From: a virus
Taxonomy: Duplodnaviria; Heunggongvirae; Uroviricota; Caudoviricetes
Virus record (IMG/VR): IMGVR_UViG_3300028610_000968
Strand: one strand, 5' to 3'
Length of the DNA: 64,000 bases
Shown: piece by piece, positions 5,395 to 47,318 of the stretch
Position numbering within the stretch: the stretch's first letter is position 1
Layout: the number at the start of each line of letters is the position of its first letter
Notes under the pieces: generated by a model
What the model was told of the DNA's origin: nothing
Databases searched by the model: none
The model's input: only the letters and a program-made list of their open reading frames with translations
Translations under genes and position numbers: made by a program

Positions 5395-6344
5395 ACATGG
5401 AACCAGAAGAGGAACTCAGTGACATAGGTGTGATTGTGGGTAGATTCCAAACCCCTTATTTAACTGATGCACACAGAGACATGATGCACACTGTGCTAGG
5501 AAAAACTGGCAGATTGCTCATAATAGTGGGGGTAGCTCATACTAGAGTGACCATGAATAATCCTCTCAGTTACGAATCGCGGAGGCAAATGATATTTAAT
5601 GAGTTCCCAACCACGACAATAGCCTATATTAAAGATGTACCAGACAACGATGAATTGTGGTCAAGAAATCTAGACTCTATAATTAATGATTTCAGAGGCC
5701 CAAATCACAGTGTTATGTTGTATGGTGGTAGAGACAGTTTCATTGGCCGTTATCATGGTGGGTTTAATACACGCAAATTCTTAGAGAAGCCATGTCAATC
5801 TGCGACACAGTTGAGAAAAGAAACTGGTCTGCGTGAACTACCAACTGCTCATTTCAGAGCAGGTGTTACGTGGGCAGCTCAAAATAGATTTGCAACCTCT
5901 TATCAAACCGTGGATATTGCAGTTTTAAAAGATGAAGAACTGCTAATTGGTAGAAAAGAGAACGAAATAAAATGGAGATTTCCTGGAGGGTTTGTTGACC
6001 CGCAGAAAGATGATTCATTGGAAGCAGCTTGCAAACGAGAAGTCAATGAAGAGACATGTGCAGAAATAGATGATTTAAGATACGTTTGTAGTCTTAGAAT
6101 TAATGATGGTCGTTATAGTAGAGAAGAAGATAAAATAATGACCGCATTTTACACAGCCAAATATATCTTTGGTGATATACAACCAAGAGACGACTTAGAT
6201 GAACTGAAGTGGGTAAGATTTTTACCAAGTGGAAACACAGACATCCTGCCTGGTGATTTAATTCCCAGCCATGAAGACTTATTAAGGGAGTTAATACACC
6301 ATTGTAGAGAAAAAGGAATAAGTAAAGAAGAATTCACTGTTTAA
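5391..6344 (+). CDS. natV: bifunctional nicotinamide-mononucleotide adenylyltransferase / Nudix hydrolase (NadM/NatV-like)
   Basis: The N-terminus GVIVGRFQTPY...DAH is a nucleotidyltransferase (T/H)xGH-like motif. The C-terminal half carries the Nudix box GGFVDPQKDDSLEAACKREVNEETCAEI. It lies immediately upstream of nadV, as in the known phage NadV/NatV pairs. Confidence 0.7.
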   Translation: MNMEPEEELSDIGVIVGRFQTPYLTDAHRDMMHTVLGKTGRLLIIVGVAHTRVTMNNPLSYESRRQMIFNEFPTTTIAYIKDVPDNDELWSRNLDSIINDFRGPNHSVMLYGGRDSFIGRYHGGFNTRKFLEKPCQSATQLRKETGLRELPTAHFRAGVTWAAQNRFATSYQTVDIAVLKDEELLIGRKENEIKWRFPGGFVDPQKDDSLEAACKREVNEETCAEIDDLRYVCSLRINDGRYSREEDKIMTAFYTAKYIFGDIQPRDDLDELKWVRFLPSGNTDILPGDLIPSHEDLLRELIHHCREKGISKEEFTV

Positions 6345-6365
6345 TAATAAGGGAGAAAGGTAGAG

Positions 6366-7775
6366 TTGATGAGCAAAAAGAACATTATTTTAAGCACAGA
6401 CAGTTACAAAATTGGTGCTCACCACAATATGTATCCACCAGGCACACGAGGAATATACTCCTACCTGGAGGCGAGAAATACGGCAAGGTGGGATGAGACT
6501 GTTTTCTTTGGGTTACAATACATACTCAAGAACATGTTCTTAGGCCGAGTTGTGACCCAAGAAAAAATAGATGAAGCAGAAACATTGTGCTTGGCGCATC
6601 TAGGCCCAGGAGCCTTTAACAAAGCTGGGTGGGAGCACATACTCAATAAACACGACGGAAGATTGCCAGTAATGATAAAGGCAGTGCCGGAGGGCATGGT
6701 AGTTCCGAAAGATAATGTGATGCTCACCATACTAAACACTGACAAAGAGTGTGAGTGGCTAACATCATACTTGGAAACACTTTTGAGCCAAGTTTGGTAT
6801 CCAAGCACAGTGGCTACTCTCAGTCGTGAAGTCAAAAGAATTCTCAAAGCTTATTTGGGAATGACTTCAGACGATGTAAGTAGTCTACTCTTTAAGTTGC
6901 ATGACTTTGGAGCAAGGGGCGTAAGTACTATGAGTGGCGCTGAGATAGGTGGTCTTGCCCATCTAGTGAACTTTATGGGTACTGACACCCTGGCCGCGAT
7001 TGTGTGCGCTAGAGACTATTACAATGCCCCGCGTGACTTCAGCGATATTGCTTTCTCTGTACCAGCAACGGAGCATAGTATCATGACTAGTTACGGCAGA
7101 GAAGGAGAAATAAGGTTGTTGGGCGAAATATTAGCCAAATACCCTGCTGGAATCTTGAGCGTCGTGGGAGATTCTTACGACATTTACAGATTCGTAGACG
7201 AGTACATGGGCAAAATCTACAAAGAACAGATACTAAAACGTGATGGAGTATTCGTCGTTAGACCAGACAGTATATCTCCAGAGCATAGAACCCCTGGTGA
7301 GCAGGTACTTTGGATATTACAATCGCTTTACCATAATTTTGGAGGCGAAATAAACAGCAAAGGATACAAAGTTCTTAACCCGAAAGTAAGAGTTCTTTGG
7401 GGAGACGGACTAAGTATAGATTCAATCAGTGAGACATTAGCTTTTGTGGAACTAAACAAGTTCAGCACTGATAACATAGCTACATTTGGGATGGGTGGTG
7501 GCTTACTTCAAGACGTAAATCGAGACGTACAGCGGTTTGCTTTCAAGTGTTCTTCACAACTCAGAGATGGTACTTGGCATGATATTCGTAAACAACCAAG
7601 AGATGTGTACAAAGCGTCCAAAGCAGGAAGACTTAAATTAATCAAGGTTGGAGAAGAGTTCAAAACAGTCCTAATCTCAGAGGAAGGCGAAGACCTATTA
7701 GAAACCGTATTCGTTGATGGTCAATTGATACGTGATGAAAATTTTACCGACGTAAGAAAGAGAGCGGAACTTTAA
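6366..7775 (+). CDS. nadV: nicotinamide phosphoribosyltransferase (NAMPT / NadV)
   Basis: 469 aa with an N-terminus ILSTDSYKIGAHHNMYPPGT... typical of NAMPT. Size and overall pattern match. RBS GGGAGAAAGG. Confidence 0.8.
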   Translation: MMSKKNIILSTDSYKIGAHHNMYPPGTRGIYSYLEARNTARWDETVFFGLQYILKNMFLGRVVTQEKIDEAETLCLAHLGPGAFNKAGWEHILNKHDGRLPVMIKAVPEGMVVPKDNVMLTILNTDKECEWLTSYLETLLSQVWYPSTVATLSREVKRILKAYLGMTSDDVSSLLFKLHDFGARGVSTMSGAEIGGLAHLVNFMGTDTLAAIVCARDYYNAPRDFSDIAFSVPATEHSIMTSYGREGEIRLLGEILAKYPAGILSVVGDSYDIYRFVDEYMGKIYKEQILKRDGVFVVRPDSISPEHRTPGEQVLWILQSLYHNFGGEINSKGYKVLNPKVRVLWGDGLSIDSISETLAFVELNKFSTDNIATFGMGGGLLQDVNRDVQRFAFKCSSQLRDGTWHDIRKQPRDVYKASKAGRLKLIKVGEEFKTVLISEEGEDLLETVFVDGQLIRDENFTDVRKRAEL

Positions 7776-7776
7776 G

Positions 7777-8067
7777 ATGGGAAGGAGAGAAAAAAGCATG
7801 AGCAAAGATAAGAACGAACAACAGAACGAGAACAATGGAGAAAAGGTTGAACCAGCAGGCGCTGGAGCAGAGGAAGTCGTACAAGGGGAAACTGACAACG
7901 TTGATGTGCCTAAACTGGAGCTTGTTGAAGACGACAAGCAAGAAGAAGAGGAATTGGTGGTAGAAGAAAAGTCAGGAATTGGAGTCTGGACGGTCATAGG
8001 CTGTATCGTCGGCGGATTGGCTCTTGGTTTCCTCATTGGCAGCATACTAGTTTCATTGGGCTACTAG
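7777..8067 (+). CDS. acidic protein with C-terminal transmembrane anchor (96 aa)
   Basis: E/D-rich N-terminal 70 aa followed by GIGVWTVIGCIVGGLALGFLIGSILVSL. Confidence 0.4.
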   Translation: MGRREKSMSKDKNEQQNENNGEKVEPAGAGAEEVVQGETDNVDVPKLELVEDDKQEEEELVVEEKSGIGVWTVIGCIVGGLALGFLIGSILVSLGY

Positions 8068-8137
8068 CCCACACTCAATATACTCTATAGAGTATTGACT
8101 TTGATAGTAAGGTAAACAGGTAAAAGGAGTAACAAGC

Positions 8138-9088
8138 ATGGAGTTTTTAAAGTTTCTATTGTTTATGGTCACTCTAATTGGTTTGATTGGATGGATATGG
8201 AAGGGCATATCTTTCGACAGAACTGATTACGGTGATATCAGAGGGATTGCGAGTTTTCCAGTCTCTCGTACAGTAACAGGGCTGGTTGTATTGGTGGGAA
8301 TATTAGTATTCTTTTCTGCCATTCAGATCATGCCCGCAGGTCACAGAGGTGTTATTTACTCACAAAAATCTGGTGTAAAAAGCCGCATTTTGCAAGAGGG
8401 GTTCAACGTTGTAACCCCAGCGGTGGAGACAGTTCACGAGGTTTCGGTTCGAGTGAGAGAGCACACGGTCGTATTAGATGTCGAAAAGAATTCGGCGGCC
8501 TCCAAGGACACACAAGATGTTGGAGCGGTCGTCACAGTCAATTACCACTACGATGCTAAAAATGTCCATAGAATCTACAGGGATATTGGAGACGCAGATA
8601 CAGTTGCGAAAACCATCCTTGTGCCGAAAACTCAGGACGCAATCAAAAGAGCCACCGCAACATTCGAAGCCGAGGATATGATTGCTAACCGAGGGAAACT
8701 GGCCGAGTTGATCAAAACAACTCTATCCGACCGTCTCGCATCTTCATACTTGATCGTCGATGATATTTCGGTGCAGAATATCAGTTTCAAGAAGGACTTT
8801 ACCGCCGCCATCGAGAACAAAGTGAAGCAGAAACAATTGGCGAAGCAGGCAAAGCTCATAGTCGTGACAAAAGAGGCTGAAGCCGAACAGCTCATTGCAG
8901 AGGCAAGAGGCGTCAAAGAGTCTCGTATTCTCAAAGCTGAAGGTACTGCTAAAGCCAACGAACTACTGGAGCGCAGCTTAACTCCCGGAGTCTTACAACA
9001 ACGAGCCATTGATGTCTGGGATGGTAAGTTCCCCACGTACTACAGTGGCGGAGCGGGCGCACCGTTGCTGTTCAACATTCCTAAATAG
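8138..9088 (+). CDS. SPFH / band-7 (prohibitin/HflC-like) membrane protein
   Basis: N-terminal TM helix, then an SPFH core and a coiled-coil region (LAKQAKLIVVTKEAEAEQLIAEARGVKESRILKAEG). Confidence 0.7.
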   Translation: MEFLKFLLFMVTLIGLIGWIWKGISFDRTDYGDIRGIASFPVSRTVTGLVVLVGILVFFSAIQIMPAGHRGVIYSQKSGVKSRILQEGFNVVTPAVETVHEVSVRVREHTVVLDVEKNSAASKDTQDVGAVVTVNYHYDAKNVHRIYRDIGDADTVAKTILVPKTQDAIKRATATFEAEDMIANRGKLAELIKTTLSDRLASSYLIVDDISVQNISFKKDFTAAIENKVKQKQLAKQAKLIVVTKEAEAEQLIAEARGVKESRILKAEGTAKANELLERSLTPGVLQQRAIDVWDGKFPTYYSGGAGAPLLFNIPK

Positions 9089-9327
9089 TTTAGGTTTGCC
9101 AACCTGAACCACCTTTGTACGATAGCCCCTTGAGCCTTCATCGGCTCCTGGGGTGCTATGACAAGAAAGCGAATGAAAATAGAATTACTCACGGGAGTAG
9201 TGAGGTTAATCTTTGTGGCATGGTTTATATCTACACAGAAAGATTTTCCATTGTTTTTGCCAATAGGCATCACTATAATTTTCCTTGCGGGTATGAATTT
9301 TGAGAGAGTGGGTAGAGCTATTACAAA

Positions 9328-9702
9328 ATGAGTTGCACAGTAGAACATAAATACTTTATAGGTAATAAAGTTTGTAGAATTATCCGTAGAGGTATGGAGA
9401 TAAAATGCCCTTCCTGTGAAGGCGTTGGAGAAGTTGTGCTTCTGGATGGACAACTATACAAATGTCCTAAGTGTCTCGGCAGCAAAGTTATTGAAGCGCA
9501 ACCACAATGGATAGTTGAAGGAGTAGAAAGAACTGTAGATAAGATTGAAATTATTATATGCCCTAAACACACTTCCATTCAATATCACACAAGCATGTGT
9601 ACTCGGCACTACGAAATAGTAGATGAAAGACGTTTATTACCAACAAGAAAACTCGCACAAGAAAAATGTAAAAGGTGGAATTTAAAAGACAATGGCGAAT
9701 AA
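9328..9702 (+). CDS. small protein with DnaJ-type CxxCxGxG zinc-finger repeats
   Basis: Motifs CPSCEGVGEV and CPKCLGSKV. Confidence 0.45.
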   Translation: MSCTVEHKYFIGNKVCRIIRRGMEIKCPSCEGVGEVVLLDGQLYKCPKCLGSKVIEAQPQWIVEGVERTVDKIEIIICPKHTSIQYHTSMCTRHYEIVDERRLLPTRKLAQEKCKRWNLKDNGE

Positions 9703-9880
9703 AAAGAAAAAAGAGAGACCGCCAAAAGGGTCATGGAAGAAAGAACAAACTATCTGTGACAAAGATGGACACCATGATTACGTAACAGTTAAAAGAGATA
9801 AAGGTGTCTTCAAAAAAGGCGATATGGTCTGTGTTTATTGTGGGTACACAGTAAAAAGAGAGGAAAATGATGGGAAGTAA
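9692..9880 (+). CDS. hypothetical Zn-ribbon protein (62 aa)
   Basis: C..C...H spacing. Start overlaps the previous stop. Confidence 0.35.
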   Translation: MANKKKKERPPKGSWKKEQTICDKDGHHDYVTVKRDKGVFKKGDMVCVYCGYTVKREENDGK

Positions 9881-10292
9881 AAATTCTAGTTTCTTGCCAT
9901 TAGACTTTGAATTGGCAAAAGAGCTGAAAGAAGCTGGGTATTCACAATACGGAAAAAATTGGTGGGTTCTTGAAAACCATGAAACTGAGTGGAAAGAAGT
10001 AAATGAAGATACCCATCTAAATTTCTATGAGCTAGGGAAACGGCTTCAAGACAGTGCTTATCTCCCAACACTCTCAGAACTTATAAGAGCTTGTGATGTT
10101 CCATTCGAAAGAAGAATTACTACTATCCATCAGCAAGCAGAACCAAATGAGCATGGAAATGGCTGCATCGCTCGCTGGTATGCACATGGGGTTTGGTGGG
10201 ACACTAGTGAACATGACGTTTATGGTGAAGGTGACACGCCCGAACAAGCAGTAGCAAGACTATGGATAGCACTGAAGAAAGGTAAGTCATGA
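9867..10292 (+). CDS. hypothetical protein (141 aa)
   Basis: ORF track entry. ATGATGG overlap with the upstream gene. Confidence 0.45.
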   Translation: MMGSKNSSFLPLDFELAKELKEAGYSQYGKNWWVLENHETEWKEVNEDTHLNFYELGKRLQDSAYLPTLSELIRACDVPFERRITTIHQQAEPNEHGNGCIARWYAHGVWWDTSEHDVYGEGDTPEQAVARLWIALKKGKS

Positions 10293-10552
10293 GAATTAAT
10301 CGTAGATTGTTTGAATTTTTTCAAACTAAAGTTTTAACAGTTATCATTGGTATAATCGCGTGGGGAATATTGTCAGCTCCACTCAGTCTACTTGACTCAG
10401 TGTTTACGTGGTTCCAATTGTTTGCGTTCGGAATCTTTCTTGTATCAGTACTAGGTGCAGCGGCAACAGCAGTTGTGTTCATCGTGTGGGTAGCGGCATG
10501 TATGGCAAATGTATGGCATGGTAGAGAAGAACCTTGGAGGGTTTACAAATGA
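10289..10552 (+). CDS. membrane protein (87 aa, 2-3 TM)
   Basis: Hydrophobic throughout. Confidence 0.4.
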   Translation: MRINRRLFEFFQTKVLTVIIGIIAWGILSAPLSLLDSVFTWFQLFAFGIFLVSVLGAAATAVVFIVWVAACMANVWHGREEPWRVYK

Positions 10553-10722
10553 TTAAGCGAGTTGCAGGATGTATTACAGGTTTAGCTGGTCTATTGTTGG
10601 TATTATCAATTTTATTATCATTGAGTACCATCGCAGTAAAAGTATTTCTTTGTAGTATAGTTGTGCTGATGTTCGGTGCAGTTTTAGCGGTAATAGTGTA
10701 TTGGGAAGAAATAGATTGGTAG
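10534..10722 (+). CDS. small membrane protein (62 aa)
   Basis: Hydrophobic. Start overlaps the previous gene. Confidence 0.35.
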   Translation: MEGLQMIKRVAGCITGLAGLLLVLSILLSLSTIAVKVFLCSIVVLMFGAVLAVIVYWEEIDW

Positions 10723-10888
10723 GTGATAGCACATGAAACAGTGGTGTTTAGATCATCCTTTCTTAACAGTACTGATAGTGTTTATTTTTGTCACAAATGT
10801 TACACACATTATATGGACAATCTTAGCACTAGCGGCAATATTTGTTCTGTTAGCTACAGCAGATAAGAATTACAAGAAATGAGGAAAA

Positions 10889-11080
10889 ATGCGTGCTGGT
10901 CTAAAGTCTAAAGAAGAGTTTGTGGAAATGATGTACGAAGAATTTCGTGATCAACTTACTTTGCGCCAAAGATTCGAAGGTTGTGAGTATGGTGTAGAGC
11001 CTTCTGGTGGCATAGACGGAGTACGTAACGCCTGGGAGCACCACGTACCCAGAGTTTTAAAAATTTTTAGGAGGGTATAA
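10889..11080 (+). CDS. hypothetical protein (63 aa)
   Basis: RBS GAGGAAAAATG. Confidence 0.4.
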   Translation: MRAGLKSKEEFVEMMYEEFRDQLTLRQRFEGCEYGVEPSGGIDGVRNAWEHHVPRVLKIFRRV

Positions 11081-11496
11081 TGGAAACACCAGAACATGTA
11101 TTTGAAGACATGATGGGGCATGCAATAAAATTCGCAGCAGGAGATCAAGAGTTATACGCGAAATTAATACGCAATAGATTTAAGCTGGCTATGGAGCGAA
11201 GGTTTGAAGAGACTTGCCGTAGACTAGAAGAAAAAAATAAGCACAATATGACAAGAGCTATGATAACTAGTGCCATGCTCGCAGATATATGTGAAGATTT
11301 GTATGGTGAAAATTCATCTGATGCACCTAGTAATTTAGCATATGAACATCTTAATTGGACACTTGGGCCATCTAAAAACCCACATGAAACATACTATGAG
11401 TGGGCTATGGAGAAGTGCGGGGCTTTGAACAGTAGTGCTCGTGTGCCAGAGTGGAAAGACTTTTTAAAGGAACTTAGAATACAATGGAAAATATAA
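11080..11496 (+). CDS. hypothetical protein (138 aa)
   Basis: RBS AGGAGGGTATAATG. Confidence 0.5.
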   Translation: METPEHVFEDMMGHAIKFAAGDQELYAKLIRNRFKLAMERRFEETCRRLEEKNKHNMTRAMITSAMLADICEDLYGENSSDAPSNLAYEHLNWTLGPSKNPHETYYEWAMEKCGALNSSARVPEWKDFLKELRIQWKI

Positions 11497-11678
11497 AGAA
11501 GAGTGCAGAGGGATGGATTACTCCAAAAGACATTAAATATTTTGGTGTAGTAAGAGATAGATTTATGGTATTCACTATGTGGGACAAAGACCCAGGAAGT
11601 TATCCAGGTATGAGTAGGAAGTTTAAGCGAGTTAAGGTTAAATTGACATTAGAAGTTTTAGAAGAGAAGGAGGACTAA
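11484..11678 (+). CDS. hypothetical protein (64 aa)
   Basis: ORF track entry. Confidence 0.4.
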   Translation: MENIKKSAEGWITPKDIKYFGVVRDRFMVFTMWDKDPGSYPGMSRKFKRVKVKLTLEVLEEKED

Positions 11679-11681
11679 ATA

Positions 11682-11873
11682 ATGATAACGATAATAGTTG
11701 CTTTACTACTGATAATACTTGTCGTAGTGGTAGTGTCGGGCGTGGAAAGACAAATGAGTAAACCGCACACTGGACACCCGTGTACGCACGAAGTGACAGA
11801 AACCTTGTCAGACAACAGGGGAGAGTTCTGCATAAAGTGTGGAAAGGTATTGGACGATGCATCAATTAGATGA
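11682..11873 (+). CDS. small membrane/Zn-ribbon protein (63 aa)
   Basis: N-terminal TM helix, then C..C....C..C. Confidence 0.4.
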   Translation: MITIIVALLLIILVVVVVSGVERQMSKPHTGHPCTHEVTETLSDNRGEFCIKCGKVLDDASIR

Positions 11874-28006: not shown

Positions 28007-28360
28007 GTGAGAATTTTAGTATGCGGTAGCAGATGGTGGACTAGTAGAAGCGCCATTATGCGAGAATTAAGCAAGTTCGATATGAAAACCACCACGATAA
28101 TTGAAGGTGAAGCTCAAGGCGCTGATTTGATTGCTAGAGATGTTGGCAGCAAGTTAGGTTTCGACATAGAGCCTTATCCTGCCAATTGGACTAGGTATCG
28201 CCTGGGAGCTGGCCCAGTTAGAAACTCCAAGATGTTAACACAGGGCTATCCAGATTTAGTGTTAGCTTTTCACGAGAACATTGAGAAGAGCAAAGGCACT
28301 AAGGACATGATAGCCAAAGCCGAGAAAGCTGGAGTTGAAGTGAGGTTGTTTAGTGATTAA
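28007..28360 (+). CDS. SLOG-superfamily (DprA/LOG-like, DUF2493-type) Rossmann-fold protein
   Basis: MRILVCGSR...IIEGEAQGADLIARDVG... matches the small phage SLOG-domain proteins (GSR, G-x-G-x-D). Confidence 0.45.
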   Translation: MRILVCGSRWWTSRSAIMRELSKFDMKTTTIIEGEAQGADLIARDVGSKLGFDIEPYPANWTRYRLGAGPVRNSKMLTQGYPDLVLAFHENIEKSKGTKDMIAKAEKAGVEVRLFSD

Positions 28361-28529: not shown

Positions 28530-30689
28530 GTGCCTAGCTCTGTGCTATTAGAAAAGTCCTTACTATATCTAGACAGTAAATGTGATGGAGCTGTCGATGA
28601 AGATGGCGTAGGCTTTAATGGCACAGACTCTCGCTTTGGCAAGTCACTAGCTGAACAAATAGGAGAAGGAGACACTCTATCAAATAGACAGCTCATAGCT
28701 GCTTATAGTATGATAGGGAAATATAGACGACAGCTAGAATCCGCAGGGATTGTTGCTTCAGAACTCACCGCAGAGAGACAGATAGCACTAGCAACGATTG
28801 AATTAGAGAAACCTGATACCAAAACCACAGGTACAATAAACCTCTCACGGGATGTTATGTCAGGTAATGACTATATAATAGTAAGATTTGAGTATGACAA
28901 TCTCCTTGTCCAGAAAATGCAGCCTCTGAAGAAGTCTATTGGAGCTTACTTCAGGAAGATAGATGGTGACAAGTTCTGGGTTATAAAAATAGAGTACTAT
29001 GCAACAATTGTTGAAAGGTTCCCAGACTTTGATATATCTCTTGAACTTAGTGATTATGCAAAGGCTCGTGGCCTAGATACAAAACCTATACCTAAAGAGC
29101 TGAAGCTAGTACCAACAGAAGAAATAGAAGATACAAATGCAGTAATACTTGAGCCTAAACCAGCACCAGTGGTGAAAGTTGATACTCACAAGGCTCCAGA
29201 AACCGCTAAATTAGATATGCAACAAATAACAATAGGAGAAGAGGAAGAAGAAGAAGCTAAAAAGCCTGAAGTAATAGCAAAACCTTTCCTCACTATTGGA
29301 GAACCAGCAAAACTAGCTCTTGAACTACGTCCGTTTCAAAACCACGGAGTGTCTTTTGTAGAACAAGTTGATGGTCGAGCTATAATAGCAGACGAGATGG
29401 GGCTTGGTAAGACTCCTCAAGGTATTGCATTTGTAGTTAAGCACGAATTTAGAGCTTTAGTGGTCTGCCCCGCCTCACTCAAAAGAAACTGGGAGCTTGA
29501 AATAAACAAGTTTTCTCCAGACAGTACAACAAATATACTAGATAGCTCAGATACTGACTACTACAAAGACTTCACTATCATCAATTATGACATTCTTGAT
29601 AACCATGTGGAGAATATACAAGGGTTATATGAGTTGGGAGTTGGCTTTGACGTACTTATATTAGATGAAGGACATTATATAAAGAACACAAAGACCAAGA
29701 GAACTCAAGCAGTGTTGGAGCTAGACTGTGTGCCTAGAAAGATAATACTCACTGGCACACCACTATTAAATAGACCAGCAGAGTTATTCCCACTGTTGAG
29801 ATTCATCAATCCTTGGAAATGGGATAATTTTGCTGAGTTCAAAAGGAAATTTTGTTCTGGTGGCATGACTTCATCCGGGTGGGATGGGAATGGTGCTTCC
29901 AATCTACAAGAACTACATGAATTATTACAAGACACTATGATTAGACGTAAGAAATCAGAAGTGTTACCAGAGTTACCAGACAAACAAATAACAGACATTA
30001 TGGTTGAGTTATCGCATGACACTAGGATAACCTACAATAGAATATTCGATAACTATATAGAATTTCTAAGAGAACAAGAACGATATGCTGAAGCCAAAAG
30101 AGCTGGAAATGCAGAGCATTTAGTTAAGATTCAAGCACTAAAACAGCTATGTTCTGCGGATAAACTGAAGTCTGCTAAAGAGTTCATAGACACTGCTTTA
30201 GAGCAGAACGGAGACTCCGGTAAAATACTAGTATTCTCTCAATACAAAGATGTGGTTAAGGACATCTATGAAGAGTACGGTAGCAAAGTTGTTAAAATCA
30301 CTGGCGAGAGTAGTTCATCACAAAGACAAAACGCAGTAGAGGAATTTCAAAATAACGATGAAGTTAAGATTCTTGTTGGTACTATAAAAGCAGCTGGGGT
30401 CGGGTTCACATTAACTCAAGCAGATAAAGTTCTATTCATTGATTTAGCTTGGACTCCCAGTGACCACGACCAAGCCGAGGATAGAGCGCACAGAATCGGT
30501 CAGAAAGAAGCATTAAATGTATACTATCTAATAGCAGATGAAACAATAGACCAGAAAATTAAAGGTATATTGGGTTCAAAAAGAAAGGTTATCAATCAAG
30601 TAATAGATGGCTCAACAGACGAAACTATAACAGACACATCAACTCTCAATGAGCTAACATCACAATTGAAGAGAGAGTATGCAATATGA
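28530..30689 (+). CDS. SNF2-family (Swi2/Snf2, RapA/HepA-like) ATPase/helicase with an N-terminal extension of about 270 aa
   Basis: Walker A ADEMGLGKTPQGIAF, DEGH box at LILDEGHYIKN, helicase-C motifs including QAEDRAHRIGQ. The first 270 aa have no recognisable motif. Confidence 0.8.
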   Translation: MPSSVLLEKSLLYLDSKCDGAVDEDGVGFNGTDSRFGKSLAEQIGEGDTLSNRQLIAAYSMIGKYRRQLESAGIVASELTAERQIALATIELEKPDTKTTGTINLSRDVMSGNDYIIVRFEYDNLLVQKMQPLKKSIGAYFRKIDGDKFWVIKIEYYATIVERFPDFDISLELSDYAKARGLDTKPIPKELKLVPTEEIEDTNAVILEPKPAPVVKVDTHKAPETAKLDMQQITIGEEEEEEAKKPEVIAKPFLTIGEPAKLALELRPFQNHGVSFVEQVDGRAIIADEMGLGKTPQGIAFVVKHEFRALVVCPASLKRNWELEINKFSPDSTTNILDSSDTDYYKDFTIINYDILDNHVENIQGLYELGVGFDVLILDEGHYIKNTKTKRTQAVLELDCVPRKIILTGTPLLNRPAELFPLLRFINPWKWDNFAEFKRKFCSGGMTSSGWDGNGASNLQELHELLQDTMIRRKKSEVLPELPDKQITDIMVELSHDTRITYNRIFDNYIEFLREQERYAEAKRAGNAEHLVKIQALKQLCSADKLKSAKEFIDTALEQNGDSGKILVFSQYKDVVKDIYEEYGSKVVKITGESSSSQRQNAVEEFQNNDEVKILVGTIKAAGVGFTLTQADKVLFIDLAWTPSDHDQAEDRAHRIGQKEALNVYYLIADETIDQKIKGILGSKRKVINQVIDGSTDETITDTSTLNELTSQLKREYAI

Positions 30690-30820
30690 AACTAACCCTT
30701 GTAGATAAATTAATTGTAGCTCTTGCTGTCATTGTAGCGTTTGCTATCTATTATCTTATATTCCTGGTGGTAGGATAATTACCTGTAATCCTCTTATGAG
30801 GTTGACGTAAGGAGTTTATT

Positions 30821-31087
30821 ATGGCGAAAAGAGGCCCACAACCGGGTACTCCACAAGCAAAGCGGGGAGGGGAGACAGTCAAGGAAAAGTACGGCCCTGA
30901 GTTCTATAAAAAGATAGGCAAAAAGGGTGGCGATGCTGTCAAAAAGAAGTATGGTGCTAGTTTCTACGAAGAGATTGGTAAAAAAGGCGGTGAATCTACC
31001 AAAGCAAAGCATGGCCTCGAATTCTATGAGAGAATAGGCAAAAAAGGAGGCCGCAGGAGCACAGAGGAAGGAGATGAAAAAACTTGA
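30821..31087 (+). CDS. GsiB/YciG-like KGG-repeat stress protein (hydrophilin), copy/segment 1
   Basis: Three tandem 20-aa repeats KYGPEFYKKIGKKGG, KYGASFYEEIGKKGG and KHGLEFYERIGKKGG, as in Bacillus GsiB (HDKEFYQEIGQKGGEAT). Confidence 0.6.
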   Translation: MAKRGPQPGTPQAKRGGETVKEKYGPEFYKKIGKKGGDAVKKKYGASFYEEIGKKGGESTKAKHGLEFYERIGKKGGRRSTEEGDEKT

Positions 31088-31107
31088 GTGACAGTGAAAA
31101 AGGTAAA

Positions 31108-31344
31108 ATGACGGTTGGTGCTGCTGGAAGTAAAGGTGGCAAAAGCACCATGAAGAAGTACGGCCCAGGATTCTATGAAGAGATAGGCAAAAAGGGCGGT
31201 ACTGAAACATCTCGAAAGTATGGGCGAGAGTTCTATCAGGAGATTGGCCACAGGGGAGGCCAGAAAGTGAAGAAGCTCATTGAGGCAGGCAAAAAAGCCG
31301 AAGCGGAGGCGGCAGGCAAGGGAACCGAAGAAGAAGAACTATAA
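31108..31344 (+). CDS. GsiB/YciG-like KGG-repeat protein, copy/segment 2
   Basis: Repeats KYGPGFYEEIGKKGG and KYGREFYQEIGHRGG. It is in a different frame from 30821-31087, and the two frames meet at an A6 run (31077-31082). This could be one frameshifted gene or two tandem genes. Confidence 0.5.
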   Translation: MTVGAAGSKGGKSTMKKYGPGFYEEIGKKGGTETSRKYGREFYQEIGHRGGQKVKKLIEAGKKAEAEAAGKGTEEEEL

Positions 31345-31390
31345 GATATTGTCGGGAAACCGACAGTAGAGCCAGGAATGGCTCTACTTT

Positions 31391-31474
31391 GGGCGAGTGG
31401 TGGAACTGGTATACACAACGGACTTAAAATCCGTCGCCTTAACCGGATTGGGGGTTCGAATCCCCCCTTGCCTA
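31391..31474 (+). tRNA. tRNA-Leu(TAA): tRNA-Leu (anticodon TAA), type II with a long variable arm
   Basis: Hand-folded. Acceptor GGGCGAG/CTTGCCT has two G-U pairs. Anticodon stem ACGGA/TCCGT with loop CTTAAAA. Variable arm of 16 nt. T-arm GGGGG-TTCGAAT-CCCCC. Confidence 0.6.
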
Positions 31475-31843
31475 CTGTCTCTGCAAACTGAAGAGCTGAC
31501 GAGCCTGAGAGAGAACTGCGGCTGTTCACCGTGACTCACTAGGGTTGCAGAGACTATGACATTATATTATATTGGAGGTGATAACTTATGCTATTTAACA
31601 GTACTAGTGTACTCTGGGTGTGTGAAGCAAGGACAACAGCAGAACCAAAACCGCACGTTCATCTTGATCGACTGAAGTATGCGGCAGAGTTTGCCCCGTA
31701 GCCGTGGCTGGCAACATGGAGATTAACATTATACCGTTAGATTAACAAAACAACTTACAGGAAATGATTTAAAGGTTTAACGGAGTGCCTGGACTGGTGA
31801 CCGGGTGCTCCCTCAAATCTTTAATGGAAGAGAGGTGATATTT

Positions 31844-32350
31844 ATGATTCAACATGGTATGAAAGTAAGGGACAATTTATCTGGATTTGAAGGAACAGTC
31901 ACAGCTATAAGTGATTGGGCTTTTGGCTGCATCCGCATCAAAGTAGAGCCAAACAGACTTGACGAAAAGGGTGCTCCAATTCAAAATCAAGTCTTTGATG
32001 AACAACGATTGGACATTATTGATGATAAGGGAGCGATTGTACCCGACATTGATGCAGACCCACCAATTGAGATGGGGTGGGAGGTAAAAGATTCCATAAC
32101 TGGGTTCAAAGGAATCGTTGTGTGCAGGACTACACATATCTCAGGTCTAGTCATAGTCCAAGTGGCAGCTGAGAAGATGAAAGAAGGCAAGCCAGTTGAG
32201 GAACAAGCCTTTGAAGAAAGGCGCTTAGTGAAAATCGAGGCCAAGAAAGTCAAGCACAGTAAAGATGCTATCAACAGGGAGAAGGATGCCCCGCAAGGCG
32301 ACCAGGTGGCAGCGGGGAGTAGCGTTCTCAATACGGGGAGTACCGTATAA
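31844..32350 (+). CDS. hypothetical protein with two tandem small beta-domain repeats (about 168 aa)
   Basis: ATG after AGAGAGGTGATATTT. The internal duplication is G-x-K-V-x-D-x-x-S/T-G-F-x-G-x-V at residues about 5-35 and about 80-110. Confidence 0.45.
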   Translation: MIQHGMKVRDNLSGFEGTVTAISDWAFGCIRIKVEPNRLDEKGAPIQNQVFDEQRLDIIDDKGAIVPDIDADPPIEMGWEVKDSITGFKGIVVCRTTHISGLVIVQVAAEKMKEGKPVEEQAFEERRLVKIEAKKVKHSKDAINREKDAPQGDQVAAGSSVLNTGSTV

Positions 32351-32421
32351 AGTTTTAAGGGCTATTGGCTCAACGGACAGAGCGCCGGGTTACGAACCCG
32401 GAGACTACAGGTTCAAATCCT
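32349..32421 (+). tRNA. tRNA-Arg(ACG): tRNA-Arg (anticodon ACG)
   Basis: Clean cloverleaf. Acceptor GGGCTAT/ATAGTCC, D-stem GCTC/GAGC, anticodon stem CCGGG/CCCGG with loop TTACGAA, T-arm ACAGG-TTCAAAT-CCTGT. Confidence 0.75.
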
Positions 32422-32437
32422 GTATAGTCCTCTATGA

Positions 32438-32506
32438 TATACTCTTGGTGTAGTGGATTGCACGGTTATCTCTGGTATGGAGATGATAAGTCTGGGTTCG
32501 ACTCCC
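32438..32506 (+). other. tRNA-like element with a canonical T-arm (CTGGG-TTCGACT-CCCGG) and a 5-bp stem ATCTC/GAGAT, but no resolvable acceptor stem; possible tRNA remnant or structured RNA
   Basis: GGTTCGACTCCC is a textbook T-arm. I could not pair the 5' and 3' ends into a 7-bp acceptor stem, and the candidate anticodon loop TGGTATG lacks U33. Confidence 0.25.
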
Positions 32507-32601
32507 GGAGGGTAAACTATGGATAGAGATAGAATAACATATAAGAAATTTAAACATGAGATGCGTTCTTTTTGGATATTTCTTTCGGTTCTTTTTAGTT
32601 C

Positions 32602-34258: not shown

Positions 34259-34331
34259 GGGTAGGTAACTCAGAGGCCAGAGTAGTGGACTTTTAATCCA
34301 TTCGCCGAGGGTTCGACTCCCTCTCTACCCA
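34259..34331 (+). tRNA. tRNA-Lys(TTT): tRNA-Lys (anticodon TTT)
   Basis: Acceptor GGGTAGG/TCTACCC, D-stem ACTC/GAGT, anticodon stem GTGGA/TCCAT with loop CTTTTAA, T-arm GAGGG-TTCGACT-CCCTC. Confidence 0.75.
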
Positions 34332-34333
34332 CT

Positions 34334-35488: not shown

Positions 35489-35564
35489 AAGGGGAGTTAG
35501 CTCAACTTGGTATAGAGCCGCAGACTCATAATCTGTTGGTTGGGGGTTCGAGTCCCTCACTCCC
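35489..35564 (+). tRNA. tRNA-Met(CAT): tRNA-Met (anticodon CAT; initiator, elongator or Ile-lysidine type not resolved)
   Basis: Acceptor GGGGAGT/ACTCCCC, D-stem GCTC/GAGC, anticodon stem GCAGA/TCTGT with loop CTCATAA, T-arm GGGGG-TTCGAGT-CCCTC. Confidence 0.7.
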
Positions 35565-35940
35565 CACTGTGGTAATAGAGCGACAGGAGGAAACATGAAA
35601 GATTGGGTTAGAGGAATAGGATTTGGCTTTTCCGCTGCTTCACTGATTATAGGAACATTGTTGGAACCAATAATCGTGGGCATAGGTTTTATATTGTTAG
35701 TTATGACACTTGGATTCCTGTATGTTGGAGAGGTAATCGAAAAGCTAATCGAAACCCAAGAATAAAATGGAGGTAAACAATGAAAGTAACTTTAAATGAC
35801 ATTCAAGAGAATTTAGATGAGTTCCATTCAGCCGAAATGTTGGATGCAGAAGAATTTGAAGACCAAATAGAAAACATAAGTAAAGAGGTAAAAGGTGAAA
35901 GAGGCTCGGCTGAATTCGTCACCAGCCTCAAAAACGCTTT

Positions 35941-39600: not shown

Positions 39601-40275
39601 ATGAGAGCTACAGCAAAACTTAAACTAAAGATAGGCAGACACTTTACAAACGTTGCATTATATAAAGCAACTGAAACAAAAGAGGTAACACGAAAAACCT
39701 TTCACATTGAAGATGATGGTGCTATCGAAACTAAATCGTTTTGTACTTATTGCGAAGCAGAAGTTGACGCAGACGATATAACGAAGAAAGTAATGATAGA
39801 CGGTGAACTATATGAATTGACAGATACACAAAAGGACAAAATATTAAATCCTGCTAAAGAGATTAAGGTGTTGCACTTGATACCAGAATCTAAAGCAGGC
39901 TCACTTTCGCCCGGTAGTAATCGTTACTATGTACGACCAGATAAGACTTTGAAAGATGAAACCGTGTTCAATGCCATATTTGATAACTTGGCAGAAAGAC
40001 AACAGATAGCAATAGTGGAATACGCTACGGGCAGTATCCCCTATATAGGATTTTTGACCAGCAAGGGGGTTTTACAATCACTACTGTACACGGACGAAAC
40101 TAGGGAAGCTCCAGATATGCCTACCGTTCAAGTGCCACGCCCCATGTACATACTCATGTCGAGGATTATGAACGAGAAAATAACCAACGACTTTGAGATA
40201 AAAAATACTGGGCCTAACAAAATTTACAGAAAATTACAAGAGCAAGCCAAACCGAAGACAGCCAAAACAAATTGA
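39601..40275 (+). CDS. hypothetical protein (224 aa), first gene of the amidoligase cluster operon
   Basis: RBS AGGAGGATTCGTAGATG. Confidence 0.5.
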   Translation: MRATAKLKLKIGRHFTNVALYKATETKEVTRKTFHIEDDGAIETKSFCTYCEAEVDADDITKKVMIDGELYELTDTQKDKILNPAKEIKVLHLIPESKAGSLSPGSNRYYVRPDKTLKDETVFNAIFDNLAERQQIAIVEYATGSIPYIGFLTSKGVLQSLLYTDETREAPDMPTVQVPRPMYILMSRIMNEKITNDFEIKNTGPNKIYRKLQEQAKPKTAKTN

Positions 40276-40290
40276 AAGGAAGTTTCATGA

Positions 40291-41355
40291 TTGGATTTAA
40301 GATTAGGAGCTGACCCAGAGCTACCATTAGTCAACAAAACGGGTCAAATAGTACCAGCGGAAGAAGTCTCAGCCGCAATCAGGCGAAGTCAAAAAGTTAA
40401 GAAAGACGGTATCAATGTTGAGATAAACCCCTCAGCAGCCTCGTGTAGAGAGCATTTACTCAGTTACATCGGTTCCTCGATAATGAGCGTTCAACGTATT
40501 TGCCAAAGCGAAGGTCTCGACGTTAGCAGGGCATCCACCTACGAAGTTCCAAGAAAAGTACTGGATGCTTTACCAGCAGCCGACAGACAGTTTGGTTGTG
40601 AAGAAGATAAAGATGCGTATTCCGGCAAAGTGAGAGTAGTCAAAGCCGACCCGAAGCAATTAGATAGGTATGCTGGTGGTCACATGCACTTTGGGTCTCC
40701 TTCATTAACTCGGCTCACCGACAAACAAATCCACGAAGTAGTACAGCTCTTAGATATAGGTGTTGGTAACATCGGTGTGCTCTTTGAGCAAGACCAAGAG
40801 GACAGCAACAAGAGGCGTAGGGAAGTCTATGGTTCCGCAGGAGCTTACAGACGGCCAGCACACGGGTTAGAGTACCGAGTTCCCTCTAATTGGTGGGTAT
40901 GGCATCCGGCAACAACTTCTATGATTTTCCTCTTAGCTAGGACTATGATAACCATGTACTTTGAGAACTCTGTCTTAGCCAAGACTATTATTTCTCATCT
41001 AGCGGAGTCTTCAAAGCAGGCTATCAACTTACAAGATAAGTACTTAGCTTTGGATAACATCGCTTACTTAATAGAGTTGTTCCACAGACAAAAACCATTG
41101 CCCAATAGGGTATCTGATGGCACTTTGATAGGTTTAGGTAAGAGGTTTTTTCGCCTCGACGACCCATTCGAGTGGGCTTCAATTATCTACTTGGCCGATA
41201 ACCAAGAAATTTTAGGAACAAATCTATTCACAAATTGGAAGGGTGTAGGATACGGAAAATCTGGTTATCAGAAGTTCATATCCAGCACATTGTCTCAAGA
41301 CCCAGGATTTATGGCTCAGTACGGCTTTCTAACTGGATTAAGGAGAATATTTTAG
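40291..41355 (+). CDS. GCS2/YbdK-like carboxylate-amine ligase (glutamine-synthetase-fold amidoligase)
   Basis: TTG start after GAAAGGAAG. The N-terminus LRLGADPELPLVN is a variant of the L-G-x-E-x-E motif, and GGHMHFG matches the G-x-H-x-H-x-G motif of GCS2 enzymes. Confidence 0.45.
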   Translation: MDLRLGADPELPLVNKTGQIVPAEEVSAAIRRSQKVKKDGINVEINPSAASCREHLLSYIGSSIMSVQRICQSEGLDVSRASTYEVPRKVLDALPAADRQFGCEEDKDAYSGKVRVVKADPKQLDRYAGGHMHFGSPSLTRLTDKQIHEVVQLLDIGVGNIGVLFEQDQEDSNKRRREVYGSAGAYRRPAHGLEYRVPSNWWVWHPATTSMIFLLARTMITMYFENSVLAKTIISHLAESSKQAINLQDKYLALDNIAYLIELFHRQKPLPNRVSDGTLIGLGKRFFRLDDPFEWASIIYLADNQEILGTNLFTNWKGVGYGKSGYQKFISSTLSQDPGFMAQYGFLTGLRRIF

Positions 41356-41684
41356 TGCTGTTAGTGCAAGTAGGTAATCCAGATCAACTTTATCTTATTG
41401 AGTTTCCAATGGCAGAGTTAGTTTGGTGCTATGGAGATTTAATAAGTGAAGAAAAGAAAATGGAACTGGAAACAGGGAAAGAGTGTGACAGACTGTTCTT
41501 TCAAATTGAAGGAGAGTTGTGGCTTTCGATTCCAAAAGATGTTCATTACTACTTTAAAGAATTGAGAACACACACAGGGGCTTTCACAAAAAAAGTGATT
41601 ACTCCACCAATGTTTTACAAGATATTTATGAATCCCACCGAAGTGACGGCTAGGATAGAGGATAAATTAGTATGTGCGGGATAG
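41355..41684 (+). CDS. hypothetical protein (about 109 aa)
   Basis: GTG start overlapping the previous TAG, after AAGGAG. Confidence 0.35.
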   Translation: MLLVQVGNPDQLYLIEFPMAELVWCYGDLISEEKKMELETGKECDRLFFQIEGELWLSIPKDVHYYFKELRTHTGAFTKKVITPPMFYKIFMNPTEVTARIEDKLVCAG

Positions 41685-42925
41685 TAGCGTTAAGTTTAGA
41701 GAACAAGGTAAGGACAGAGAAAGAGTACGGAGATATTCGTACCCTATTGGGTTCATTAATCCAATCTACTAGTAAAAGAGGAGAACACGCTACAGGGATA
41801 GTTACCATTAGTAAAAGTGGTGACGCTGTATTGCTCAAATCGAACGCCAAATCAGCGGAGTTCATTGAATCGGAACAATACAATATGCTAATCCCAACCA
41901 TAGGTGCTAGAACCAAAACTATCCTAGCTCATTGTAGGAGAACCACTAAGGGTTCAGCATCCATCAAACAGAATAATCATCCTGTATTAGTACACCCCTT
42001 TGTGGGGATACACAACGGTACTATTATGAATGATGATGAGTTGGTGAAAGAACACAAACTGTCCAGGGACGGCTCTGTTGATAGTGAAGTAATTATTAGG
42101 TTGCTCAAACATTACAACCCTAAGAAGATAACAAAGGAATCTATTAAGAAAACATGTGAGGAATTAGAAGGTGGATTTGCTTGCGTTACAGTTAATTTAC
42201 ACCAACCTAATATCTTGGGGCTTTACAAAAATCGTAACCCAATAATTGTTTTCAGAGTACCAGAGTTGGGACTTGTCGGAGTTGTTTCTGAGTACCTTTT
42301 CATTAGTGATGCTTTGAAGGCAGTAGGAATCAAAGGCACTAGTGATACTTTCCACATGCGCGGTGACAGAGGTTTAATCCTTGATTCTAATATACCCCAA
42401 AAAGGTATAGACTATGGAGACCAGGCGTTTCTAATTGACGATGCTAATCCGGTTGGAAAAAGTTTCGAGGGTTACTACACTGCTGCTGATAGAGCAGAAG
42501 TGCAAAGGAGAAGAAAAGCTGGTTTAGGGAGTGAGTTCGGACACAATCAAGGAGTAAATATTGATAGAAATAGGAGGCAGCACAGTTTAGCCCCAGGAAA
42601 ACAGTTAGGGGATACTACTATGGAAAGTGCTAAAATAAAAGCACAACTACACTACGCTATGAGTTCAGAGATATTTAAAACAAGGTTACTCAAGAACGGT
42701 GGACATGCTATGAATAGAAATGATAAGGACAATCTCCTAGATATATTCAATGCAGCCTATCTGATGGGTCGTTATACCTCTGGGCAAGAGCTTGAGAATG
42801 TAAAAACACTAGAGGAAGAGGCATTAATATCAAATATGGAAGTATTACTCACAGAGCGAGCTTCTTTCCTACAGTTGCCTTATGATGAATTGTCTGAAAA
42901 AGTAAAGAATAGGAAGAGTTCTTAA
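41672..42925 (+). CDS. class-II (Ntn) glutamine amidotransferase domain protein with an uncharacterised C-terminal domain of about 200 aa
   Basis: N-terminal MCGIV (Cys2 nucleophile), then HCRRTTKGS and NNHP, which are GATase-II signatures. There is no asparagine-synthetase SGGxDS motif. Confidence 0.65.
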   Translation: MCGIVALSLENKVRTEKEYGDIRTLLGSLIQSTSKRGEHATGIVTISKSGDAVLLKSNAKSAEFIESEQYNMLIPTIGARTKTILAHCRRTTKGSASIKQNNHPVLVHPFVGIHNGTIMNDDELVKEHKLSRDGSVDSEVIIRLLKHYNPKKITKESIKKTCEELEGGFACVTVNLHQPNILGLYKNRNPIIVFRVPELGLVGVVSEYLFISDALKAVGIKGTSDTFHMRGDRGLILDSNIPQKGIDYGDQAFLIDDANPVGKSFEGYYTAADRAEVQRRRKAGLGSEFGHNQGVNIDRNRRQHSLAPGKQLGDTTMESAKIKAQLHYAMSSEIFKTRLLKNGGHAMNRNDKDNLLDIFNAAYLMGRYTSGQELENVKTLEEEALISNMEVLLTERASFLQLPYDELSEKVKNRKSS

Positions 42926-46767: not shown

Positions 46768-47136
46768 TTGGTAGTACAGAAAACAGCATACACAAGGAGA
46801 ATCACATTAAACGAAAAAGGATGGGGCAAGTTAAAAGCTGTAGCTACTTGCAAAGCTCCCAGCAGGCATCCACTTGTGATGGCATGTTCAAAAGGTAATG
46901 GACTTACTAGATTTGCGGTGGTTATCATCATCAAAAAGATATACAACCACCTCGAAAAGAATTACACGAAAGCGCAAATCAAAGAACACACTACCGCGCA
47001 AACGGCAATGGAGATCCGTACCGATGAAAATATTTACGGTACTGGTGTTTGGACAACCGTATTAAGCCGCCTTCAAGGCACTTCGCCTGGAGTAAAAGTA
47101 AAAGAGGACTTCAAAACTAGACAAGTTGGACAATGA
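46768..47136 (+). CDS. hypothetical protein (122 aa)
   Basis: ORF track entry. It is the last + strand gene. Confidence 0.45.
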   Translation: MVVQKTAYTRRITLNEKGWGKLKAVATCKAPSRHPLVMACSKGNGLTRFAVVIIIKKIYNHLEKNYTKAQIKEHTTAQTAMEIRTDENIYGTGVWTTVLSRLQGTSPGVKVKEDFKTRQVGQ

Positions 47137-47171
47137 AACAGTAGTTTAGGAAAGCTCCTCTTTTTACACTC

Positions 47172-47199
47172 AAAAAAGCCCCACTTCGGGGCTTTTTTG
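47172..47199. terminator. bidirectional rho-independent terminator (AAAAAAGCCCC-ACTTC-GGGGCTTTTTT)
   Basis: Perfect GC-rich 5-6 bp stem with A6 upstream and T6 downstream, sitting between the convergent gene blocks. Confidence 0.8.
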
Positions 47200-47318
47200 T
47201 TGTCTAATATTCAATTGCAAACCAGCAGGTCAGCGACGCACTGAGACGGCTTCTAAGCGGCTTTTAGGACTTTTGCATACCCTAGCAACCCCAAACTTTA
47301 GAATAAACGAGTCTTTTT

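Follow-up and report, generated by a model that had tools for sequence, protein, structure and literature searches.

The locus described here lies in a stretch of 64,000 nucleotides from a virus of the class Caudoviricetes (IMG/VR record IMGVR_UViG_3300028610_000968). This whole stretch is referred to as the window, and all coordinates count from its first letter. Two small open reading frames, ORF1 and ORF2, encode proteins with the KGG repeat motif, and each is preceded by a Shine–Dalgarno (SD)-like sequence (Table 1). The frame of ORF2 is −1 relative to that of ORF1, and a run of six adenines (A6) ends just before the ORF1 stop. The reading favoured here, with a probability of roughly 0.8, is that the locus consists of two separate, tandem and translationally coupled genes for KGG hydrophilins, which would derive from the host and function as stress protectants.

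Table 1. Features of the KGG locus and the tRNA genes that follow it, in window coordinates
Feature	Coordinates	Strand	Remarks
SD-like AAGGAG for ORF1	30809..30814	+	6 nt 5' of the ORF1 ATG; read from the sequence
ORF1, 'type A' KGG-repeat hydrophilin	30821..31087	+	ATG start, 88 aa, coordinate mod 3 = 2, three 20-aa repeats, isoelectric point (pI) 9.8
SD-like AAGGAG for ORF2	31068..31073	+	within the ORF1 tail, 10 nt 5' of the TTG; read from the sequence
A6 run	31077..31082	+	inside GAAAAAAC (31076-31083); ORF1 codons GAA AAA ACT
ORF2, 'type B' KGG-repeat hydrophilin	31084..31344	+	TTG start, 86 aa, coordinate mod 3 = 1, two full repeats
Two adjacent stem-loops (5 bp + 10 bp)	31351..31388	+	directly 3' of the ORF2 stop; followed by UUU, then tRNA-Leu (31391)
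tRNA-Leu (TAA)	31391-31475		
tRNA-Arg (ACG)	32359-32432		
tRNA-Thr (GGT)	32439-32517		
tRNA-Lys (TTT)	34259-34332		
tRNA-Met (CAT)	35491-35567		

The two proteins hold five 20-residue units, three in ORF1 (residues 18–37, 38–57 and 58–77) and two in ORF2 (residues 20–39 and 40–59), all of the form x-x-x-K-x-K-(Y/H)-G-x-x-F-Y-x-x-I-G-(K/H)-(K/R)-G-G. Eight columns are invariant across the five units (K6, G8, F11, Y12, I15, G16, G19 and G20), and column identity averages 75%. A sequence-only reading made before this analysis had the ORF coordinates, the differing frames and the A6 run exactly right. It also counted five near-identical repeats; the number stands, but 'near-identical' is too strong, since the units are 50–65% identical to the first one and Tandem Repeats Finder (TRF) gave no DNA-level tandem repeat at the locus. 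The five units are a conserved protein motif and not near-identical copies.

Besides its two full repeats, ORF2 carries an N-terminal half-motif (MTVGAAGSKGG) and a C-terminal helix motif, GGQKVKKLIEAGKK, which is followed by an acidic tail, AEAEAAGKGTEEEEL. An antisense ORF of 138 amino acids (30794..31210) was dismissed, because the plus-strand reading has homologs at E values down to 1e-34 and 1e-44. An exact-sequence look-up of the 88-aa ORF1 product returned no match, although the Logan and ENA gene tables list an 88-aa product at this position.

The family assignment was examined against the Pfam gathering cut-offs, which are 20.4 bits for KGG (PF10685), 40 bits for LEA_5 (PF00477) and 22 bits for SASP (PF00269). 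ORF1 matches KGG in three stretches with 37.4 bits (E 3.1e-9), well above the cut-off, and LEA_5 with 38.0 bits (E 2.4e-9, profile positions 42–100), just under it. ORF2 scores 23.8 bits with LEA_5, also under the cut-off, so that neither ORF reaches the curated threshold of this family, although the similarity of the repeat region is significant for ORF1. ORF2 can be regarded as a KGG paralog in spite of a sub-cut-off KGG score, because its identity to ORF1 is 53–60% across the repeats (E 5e-16), and reaches 79–84% to proteins for which PF10685 and PF00477 hits had been precomputed. Most of the homologs bear both of these domains. The earlier proposal of a KGG-repeat hydrophilin, for which a PF10685 profile search had been suggested as the check, is thus upheld through ORF1 directly and through ORF2 as its paralog. 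NCBIfam has no family for either protein, and in the PHROGs, where no clear family emerged, ORF1 had no hit and ORF2 had weak hits only.

High glycine content and high mean hydrophilicity are the criteria by which hydrophilins are recognized (Garay-Arroyo et al. 2000, as cited in PMC5437024). The glycine content is 19.3% in ORF1 and 19.8% in ORF2, with grand average of hydropathy (GRAVY) values of −1.47 and −1.15, respectively; the pI of the two proteins lies at 9.3–9.8 and the net charge at +4 to +10. The thresholds of Garay-Arroyo and colleagues from 2000 are said to be glycine >6% and a mean hydrophilicity index >1, and both proteins have a hydrophilin composition. By profile and composition, ORF1 and ORF2 are classed as KGG-repeat, group-1 late embryogenesis abundant (LEA)-like hydrophilins of ~9–10 kDa, basic and rich in glycine and lysine.

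AlphaFold2 models are helical and of low to moderate confidence. ORF1 was modelled as all-helical with a mean predicted local distance difference test (pLDDT) score of 57.5 and a predicted template modelling (pTM) score of 0.28, while the ORF2 model (pLDDT 68.8, pTM 0.47) has helices at residues 11–26, 30–37, 39–46 and 49–78. Such models fit the family's reputation as disordered, helix-prone protectants, without proving it. No meaningful relative of either type was found in the PDB by sequence profile or among folds by Foldseek. A designed repeat protein and QueH were rejected as structural relatives, since their matches (E 0.006–0.2) cover short, compositionally similar stretches only. A SASP-like homology of the type B C-terminus was also rejected, with ORF2 at 13.3 bits (E 0.083); no SASP chain turned up when the PDB was searched with the type B profile at E ≤ 10, and Foldseek gave no match.

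The comparison of each ORF with its closest relatives is decisive for the arrangement of the locus. The best relatives of ORF1 are stand-alone genes of 79–84 amino acids that begin with MAKRGP(Q/T)PGTPQAKRGG, contain three repeats and continue with IGKKGGRR, terminating 0–5 residues past GGRR. This type, designated A, can be written as MAKRGPQPGTPQAKRGG...GKKGGRR*, and ORF1 matches it end to end. The best relatives of ORF2 are stand-alone proteins of 70–73 amino acids with the start M-x-x-KGKMTVGEAGRKGG, two repeats and the ending IGHKGGQKVKKLIExGKK. This type, B, reads M..KGKMTVGEAGRKGG...GGQKVKKLIEEGKK* and is likewise matched end to end by ORF2. The type B orthologs begin 4–7 residues ahead of the conserved KGKMTV, and the N-terminus of ORF2 read from its TTG, MSDSEKGKMTV, parallels the true N-terminus of a stand-alone protein, MEGSEKGKMTV (P0116).

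In all the cellular loci inspected (L001, L002, L007–L011 and L013), types A and B are encoded by separate genes, as a rule one A next to several B paralogs. Among 207 homologs, none combines the type A N-terminal motif with the type B C-terminal motif in one protein, and three repeats are the maximum. Identity between ORF1 and ORF2 does not exceed 60%, compared with 90% and 84% to their own types; since each ORF is far closer to its own type than to the other ORF, both a duplication within the phage and a split gene are ruled out. The two-gene reading is favoured because the two ORFs correspond in full to different stand-alone ortholog types and none of the 207 homologs fuses A with B. Of the options left open by the sequence-only reading, it is therefore that of two tandem genes, with an SD and a start of its own for ORF2, that the evidence supports.

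The junction at the A run reads as an ordinary overlapping stop and start and not as a recoding site. The TTG start of ORF2 overlaps the ORF1 stop (cTTGAg), and NTGA overlaps of start and stop, one of them with a TTG start, occur elsewhere in the window (3888/3885, 4442/4439, 5394/5391 and 30689/30686). On the plus strand of the window there are 66 runs of at least six adenines, 4 of which lie inside the two KGG genes.

Two explanations that make the locus a single gene have to be weighed against this arrangement. Programmed or transcriptional slippage, raised by the earlier reading as a source of one ~175-aa protein, would take the form of −1 frameshifting or one-A slippage at the A6 run, giving a five-repeat protein of ~174 amino acids with ORF1 as the non-shifted product. 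The layout is suggestive, with ORF2 in the −1 frame and the A6 run 2 nt before the ORF1 stop, so that a −1 slip on AAA opens a fusion reading ...EEGDEKNLSDSEKGKMTV..., and proteins with five or more repeats, such as Bacillus GsiB, exist in the wider family. However, in the ORF1 frame (GAU GAA AAA ACU UGA) the in-phase heptamer is A AAA ACU and not X XXY YYZ, and the standard simultaneous-slippage model does not allow A AAA ACU to re-pair in tandem at −1. The 87 nt downstream (31084–31170) show no stimulatory structure when folded without pseudoknots (−14.3 kcal/mol, z +0.49, with 137 of 200 shuffles as stable), and the only Rfam elements in the junction region are tRNAs. Runs that give efficient transcriptional slippage, of 8–9 nt, are longer than this one, which is 1 of the 66 in the window. 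Together with the SD and start of ORF2, its N-terminus matching that of stand-alone orthologs and the 0 of 207 homologs that are fused, these features make a slippage product very unlikely. An error at the homopolymer, with a true A7 or A5, could also have split one gene in sequencing or assembly, homopolymers being a classic source of error and the frames abutting exactly at the run. Against it, the Logan (SRR5210996) and ENA (ERZ27251120, 129,023 bp; k141, short-read) assemblies have the same sequence at the junction, and in the JGI contigs (129,025 and 113,027 bp) the 86-aa product was again called as a gene of its own. Each ORF also spans the full length of its orthologs, and a fused gene has no precedent among the 207 homologs, which leaves the error proposed by the earlier reading with a close to negligible probability.

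The origin of the two genes was sought in 185,579 species genomes, with the taxonomy as labelled in the records. The top nine genome matches of ORF1, with 73–90% identity over residues 1–79, are all labelled Actinomycetota, and they include cold-seep 'CSMAG' bins, an Acidimicrobiia bin and a deep-mine bin labelled Slackia. The next matches belong to Chloroflexota, Myxococcales and Armatimonadota, at 52–73%. ORF2 is 75–79% identical to a 71-aa type B paralog in the metagenome-assembled genomes (MAGs) that hold the ORF1 orthologs, and its best match, at 84%, is an unplaced metagenome protein. Sediment metagenomes supplied two more host-type contigs, of which one belongs to PRJNA259156 (labelled marine sediment metagenome). 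These identities assign the gene donor to uncultured, mostly sediment-dwelling Actinomycetota, and the host of the phage is probably a member of the same phylum. The Bacillus-like host suggested by the sequence-only reading is disfavoured in comparison, because Bacillales loci (Sporosarcina and Edaphobacillus) are only 54–56% identical to ORF1. With a location in a phage genome and closest relatives that are cellular, the pair can be classed as auxiliary ('moron'/auxiliary metabolic gene, AMG) genes of apparent host origin.

In the host-type contigs, the neighbours of the KGG cluster are guaB, guaA, chorismate mutase, topA and tatC, with adjoining STAS and HATPase_c_2 (RsbV/RsbW-like) genes. 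The GC content of the host loci is mostly 42–56% (62.5% in L012), that of the window 39.5% and that of the KGG pair 47.9%. The actinobacterial clusters were located at 7257–10423 (L001), 3475–7541 (L002), 5850–8252 (L007), 2787–5308 (L008) and 7980–11688 (L013), and one paralog in them bears a GG(L/R)IGGP(K/R)GG insertion. It is in L001 that the RsbV/RsbW-like genes were noted close to the cluster.

The divergence between the phage genes and their cellular counterparts bears on the age of the transfer. Compared with the nine host type A genes, ORF1 has a nucleotide identity of 69–75%, with a proportion of synonymous differences (pS) of 0.86–0.98 and of nonsynonymous differences (pN) of 0.07–0.15. 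The pS is saturated, beyond random, which reflects opposite codon preferences. Because synonymous sites are saturated and pN is this low, the transfer appears to be old and the protein sequence to have been maintained, which argues for function; the substitution pattern indicates purifying selection on the transferred protein sequence. The phage proteins also have C-terminal acidic tails of their own, STEEGDEKT in ORF1 and AEAEAAGKGTEEEEL in ORF2, and these reduce the net charge to +10 and +4, compared with about +15 and +10 for the host proteins, and the ORF1 tail also encodes the SD of ORF2. In the proposed history, the phage lineage would have acquired one copy of each type long ago. Both genes would then have been recoded to the AT-rich codon usage of the phage, the proteins being kept by strong purifying selection and the acidic tails added.

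As to function, we infer an intracellular stress-protectant role, and with it the timing of expression, the activity and the benefit to the phage. YciG and its paralogs are RpoS-dependent hydrophilins (PMC5437024), and KGG-type small proteins influence biofilm formation and tolerance (PMC9262955). In Acinetobacter baumannii, desiccation survival depends more than 100-fold on a disordered protein with a KGG domain (bioRxiv 10.1101/2021.08.11.455981). In the model put forward here, both phage proteins would be made in the infected cell, ORF2 being translated from its own SD and from the start that overlaps the ORF1 stop, and would add to the host's own pool of KGG proteins. As disordered protectants, they would stabilize proteins or nucleic acids when the cell is short of water or energy or is under osmotic stress, so that a host that is stressed or grows slowly could remain productive until lysis.

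KGG genes in other viruses were searched for in two ways. Using tblastn, the fused or single proteins had no match in 50,697 GenBank phage records, a search in which KGG hits may be masked by the low-complexity filter. Scanning IMG/VR with a motif profile yielded 7 viral contigs with KGG relatives (39–44% identity, GC 36–66%), an eighth has a one-repeat KGG protein, and phrog_30946 matches another viral KGG protein of this set (3e-6). A KGG repeat domain has also been noted in a PaV-LD-like cyanophage contig (PMC10343443). Phage-borne KGG genes, as judged from these matches, occur rarely but repeatedly, and earlier work had mentioned them in passing. The view that a stress hydrophilin is unusual cargo for a phage was correct in that such genes are uncommon, with no tblastn match and no real PHROG family, yet they recur.

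Two of the IMG/VR contigs deserve mention in their own right. In L087 (5992–11546; UViG_3300045912_000522, GC 66%), the only KGG gene, of 98 aa, is flanked by the genes for a primase and a 991-aa SNF2-like helicase, and the next gene encodes a DNA methyltransferase with a large intein-like insertion. L089 (UViG_3300025319_000059), a low-GC contig, has a degenerate 88-aa KGG-like protein at 5980–6246 and, at 4511–5197, a 228-aa protein composed of many (Y/S)GNAQV hexapeptide repeats.

Other roles for the two genes can be envisaged. They could act on phage nucleic acid, by coating, condensing or chaperoning DNA or RNA while the phage replicates or is packaged, or as internal virion proteins. This would agree with their pI and positive charge, with the SNF2 helicase that adjoins them here and the position of the KGG gene in the high-GC contig L087, with a weak Pfam similarity of the ORF2 C-terminus to SASP and with the AT-hook motifs of the A. 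baumannii KGG protein. However, the SASP link failed in both the profile search and Foldseek, the acidic tails make the phage proteins less basic than those of the host, the helicase adjacency amounts to two cases only, and the host orthologs occupy ordinary cellular loci near stress-sigma regulators rather than DNA-metabolism genes; a nucleic-acid role is thus considered unlikely. That the pair is a passenger, left over neutrally from the capture of host DNA and devoid of present function, is suggested by the presence of small host-derived genes in a large phage with many accessory ORFs. It is highly improbable, since 85–90% of the residues have been kept (pN 0.07–0.15) while synonymous sites became saturated and recoded, the starts, SDs, stops and phage-specific tails are intact, and KGG genes have entered several viral lineages. 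A broader and doubtful proposal is that KGG hydrophilins are a recurrent, selected phage tool, in which acidic-tailed versions of the host paralog types would serve phages of slow-growing or dormant subsurface bacteria, in this case Actinomycetota. Under this proposal they would work with the replication/SNF2-helicase module, protecting or organizing replicating phage DNA or keeping a starved host competent for virion production. If true, this would define a new class of 'host-resuscitation/macromolecule-protection' auxiliary genes.

Several points weigh against the reading as two host-derived genes for stress protectants. Taken alone, ORF2 scores only 16.7 bits with KGG, below the cut-off. 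Its start is ambiguous, as two gene callers place it at TTG 31084 and one at the in-frame ATG 31108, which would give a protein of 78 amino acids, and the spacing of 10 nt between SD and TTG is long. The assemblies that agree at the junction may share reads or samples, and so exclude assembler artefacts but not low-level read heterogeneity. The assignment of the host derives from the phylogeny of the two KGG genes only; the phage Ku, as a second host signal, had no match apart from itself and an 83% relative, on a contig of 909 bp, and carried no taxonomic information. Furthermore, Bacillus GsiB is acidic, whereas the phage KGG proteins are much more basic, and a KGG gene beside an SNF2 helicase and replication genes is found in two unrelated viral contigs, this phage and L087, which leaves some room for a role directed at nucleic acid.

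The surroundings of the locus are phage-like. The window encodes an SNF2 helicase, PolA, an exonuclease, a sliding clamp, NrdD and NAMPT with PHROG hits, together with five tRNAs and many small ORFs. The genome is estimated at ~129 kb, because the same sequence sits on the ENA and JGI contigs of 129,023, 129,025 and 113,027 bp. PolA is at most 35% identical to that of any GenBank phage, and megablast found no DNA match for the locus in the 50,697 GenBank phage records. Patterns of 8-mers retrieved no relatives of the SNF2 helicase from IMG/VR or the JGI metagenomes. A cluster look-up for close phage relatives that conserve the pair returned only the same phage under other start-codon conventions.

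The KGG pair stands at the end of a plus-strand block, directly after the SNF2 helicase, with the five tRNA genes directly 3' of it. The region 5' of ORF1 contains one promoter consensus match, compared with 1.6 expected by chance, and co-transcription with the upstream SNF2 helicase block is likely because no match is better than chance. The stem-loop region (31342–31395) has a minimum free energy (MFE) of −25.4 kcal/mol (z −6.24, with 0 of 200 shuffles as stable), and the double hairpin is probably a terminator or processing site that closes the KGG pair. Its T-tract is short, and a consensus terminator scan made no plus-strand call there.

Other features of the window were also recorded. 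Between the SNF2 helicase and ORF1, a strongly hydrophobic ORF of 30 amino acids (MKLTLVDKLIVALAVIVAFAIYYLIFLVVG; 30686–30778) has no Pfam hit, and its ATG overlaps the helicase stop (ATGA). A protein with a YAcAr (SLOG-family) domain (47.1 bits) is encoded at 28007–28360, just 5' of the helicase. On the other side of the pair, the tRNA-Lys(TTT) reads AAA, an abundant codon in the KGG genes, and a 181-aa ORF between tRNA-Leu and tRNA-Arg (31805–32350), with no Pfam hit, appears by eye to contain a duplicated unit of ~60 amino acids (SGFEGTVTAI/TGFKGIVVCR). Farther away, a nicotinamide phosphoribosyltransferase gene (6366–7775; phrog_448, E 1.4e-146) is an NAD-salvage auxiliary gene, and at 39601–42925 a Ku homolog (Pfam Ku, 61.6 bits) precedes genes for a COOH-NH2 ligase-type protein and a glutamine amidotransferase. 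Coding strand and GC skew switch at ~47100–47300, with plus-strand genes up to about 47.1 kb and then PolA, the exonuclease, the sliding clamp and NrdD on the minus strand.

The locus is of modest use in three respects. It provides a host lead for an otherwise unplaceable phage of ~129 kb, towards uncultured, mostly sediment or subsurface Actinomycetota. It would add stress hydrophilins to the host-derived auxiliary genes that phages keep under selection. In these Actinomycetota, two distinct types of KGG paralog are seen to form conserved clusters. In addition, a false lead is removed, the junction at the A run being a normal overlap of stop and start.

Among characterized systems, B. subtilis GsiB and YciG and YmdF of E. 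coli and Salmonella (PF10685) belong to the same KGG motif family and are small, glycine-rich and very hydrophilic proteins, often with several paralogs per genome. The phage proteins differ from them in being basic, in having 2–3 repeats and lineage-specific termini, and in resembling their Bacillales relatives at only about 54–56%; a GsiB-type orthology is not borne out when the best Bacillales loci are set against the 73–90% of Actinomycetota. The plant group 1 LEA/Em proteins (LEA_5, PF00477) have the same hydrophilic 20-mer repeat as ORF1, but they belong to another kingdom and only the repeat region aligns (38.0 vs 40 bits). A. baumannii ABUW_2433, whose mutants show a >100-fold greater desiccation sensitivity, shares a KGG domain with the phage proteins and is itself predicted to be disordered. 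However, it is 411 amino acids long, its KGG region is small and N-terminal, it has AT-hook repeats, and it is not a close relative. The likeness of the junction to dnaX-type −1 frameshifting or homopolymer slippage is limited to the superficial layout of two frames at an A run, since it has no in-phase slippery heptamer, stimulator or conserved fusion, and the start of ORF2 is independent.

The other viral KGG proteins (IMG/VR L085–L091 and L003, and the PaV-LD ORF116R relative) are likewise small KGG-motif proteins on viral contigs, but their identity is only 39–45%, each is a single gene with no A+B pair, and their GC content and hosts differ. The direct orthologs are those of the KGG clusters in Actinomycetota MAGs (JAUXSL010000050, CAXMSJ010000024, JAUVQD010000003, JAUWRD010000048 and CAJVYJ010000170), with 73–90% identity for type A and 75–79% for type B. 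These clusters agree with the phage pair in how many repeats the proteins have, in the N-terminal motifs and, for type B, in the C-terminal GGQKVKKLIExGKK, with the two types always separate. In contrast to the phage pair, in which A precedes B with a 4-nt overlap, the clusters are cellular, comprise 3–7 paralogs and usually have the order B...B then A. Their proteins lack the acidic C-terminal tails and have a pI of about 10, and their genes use GC-richer codons, at a nucleotide identity of 69–75%. Judged from these comparisons, this phage stands out by its A+B pair, by the clear actinobacterial origin of that pair and by the acidic tails.

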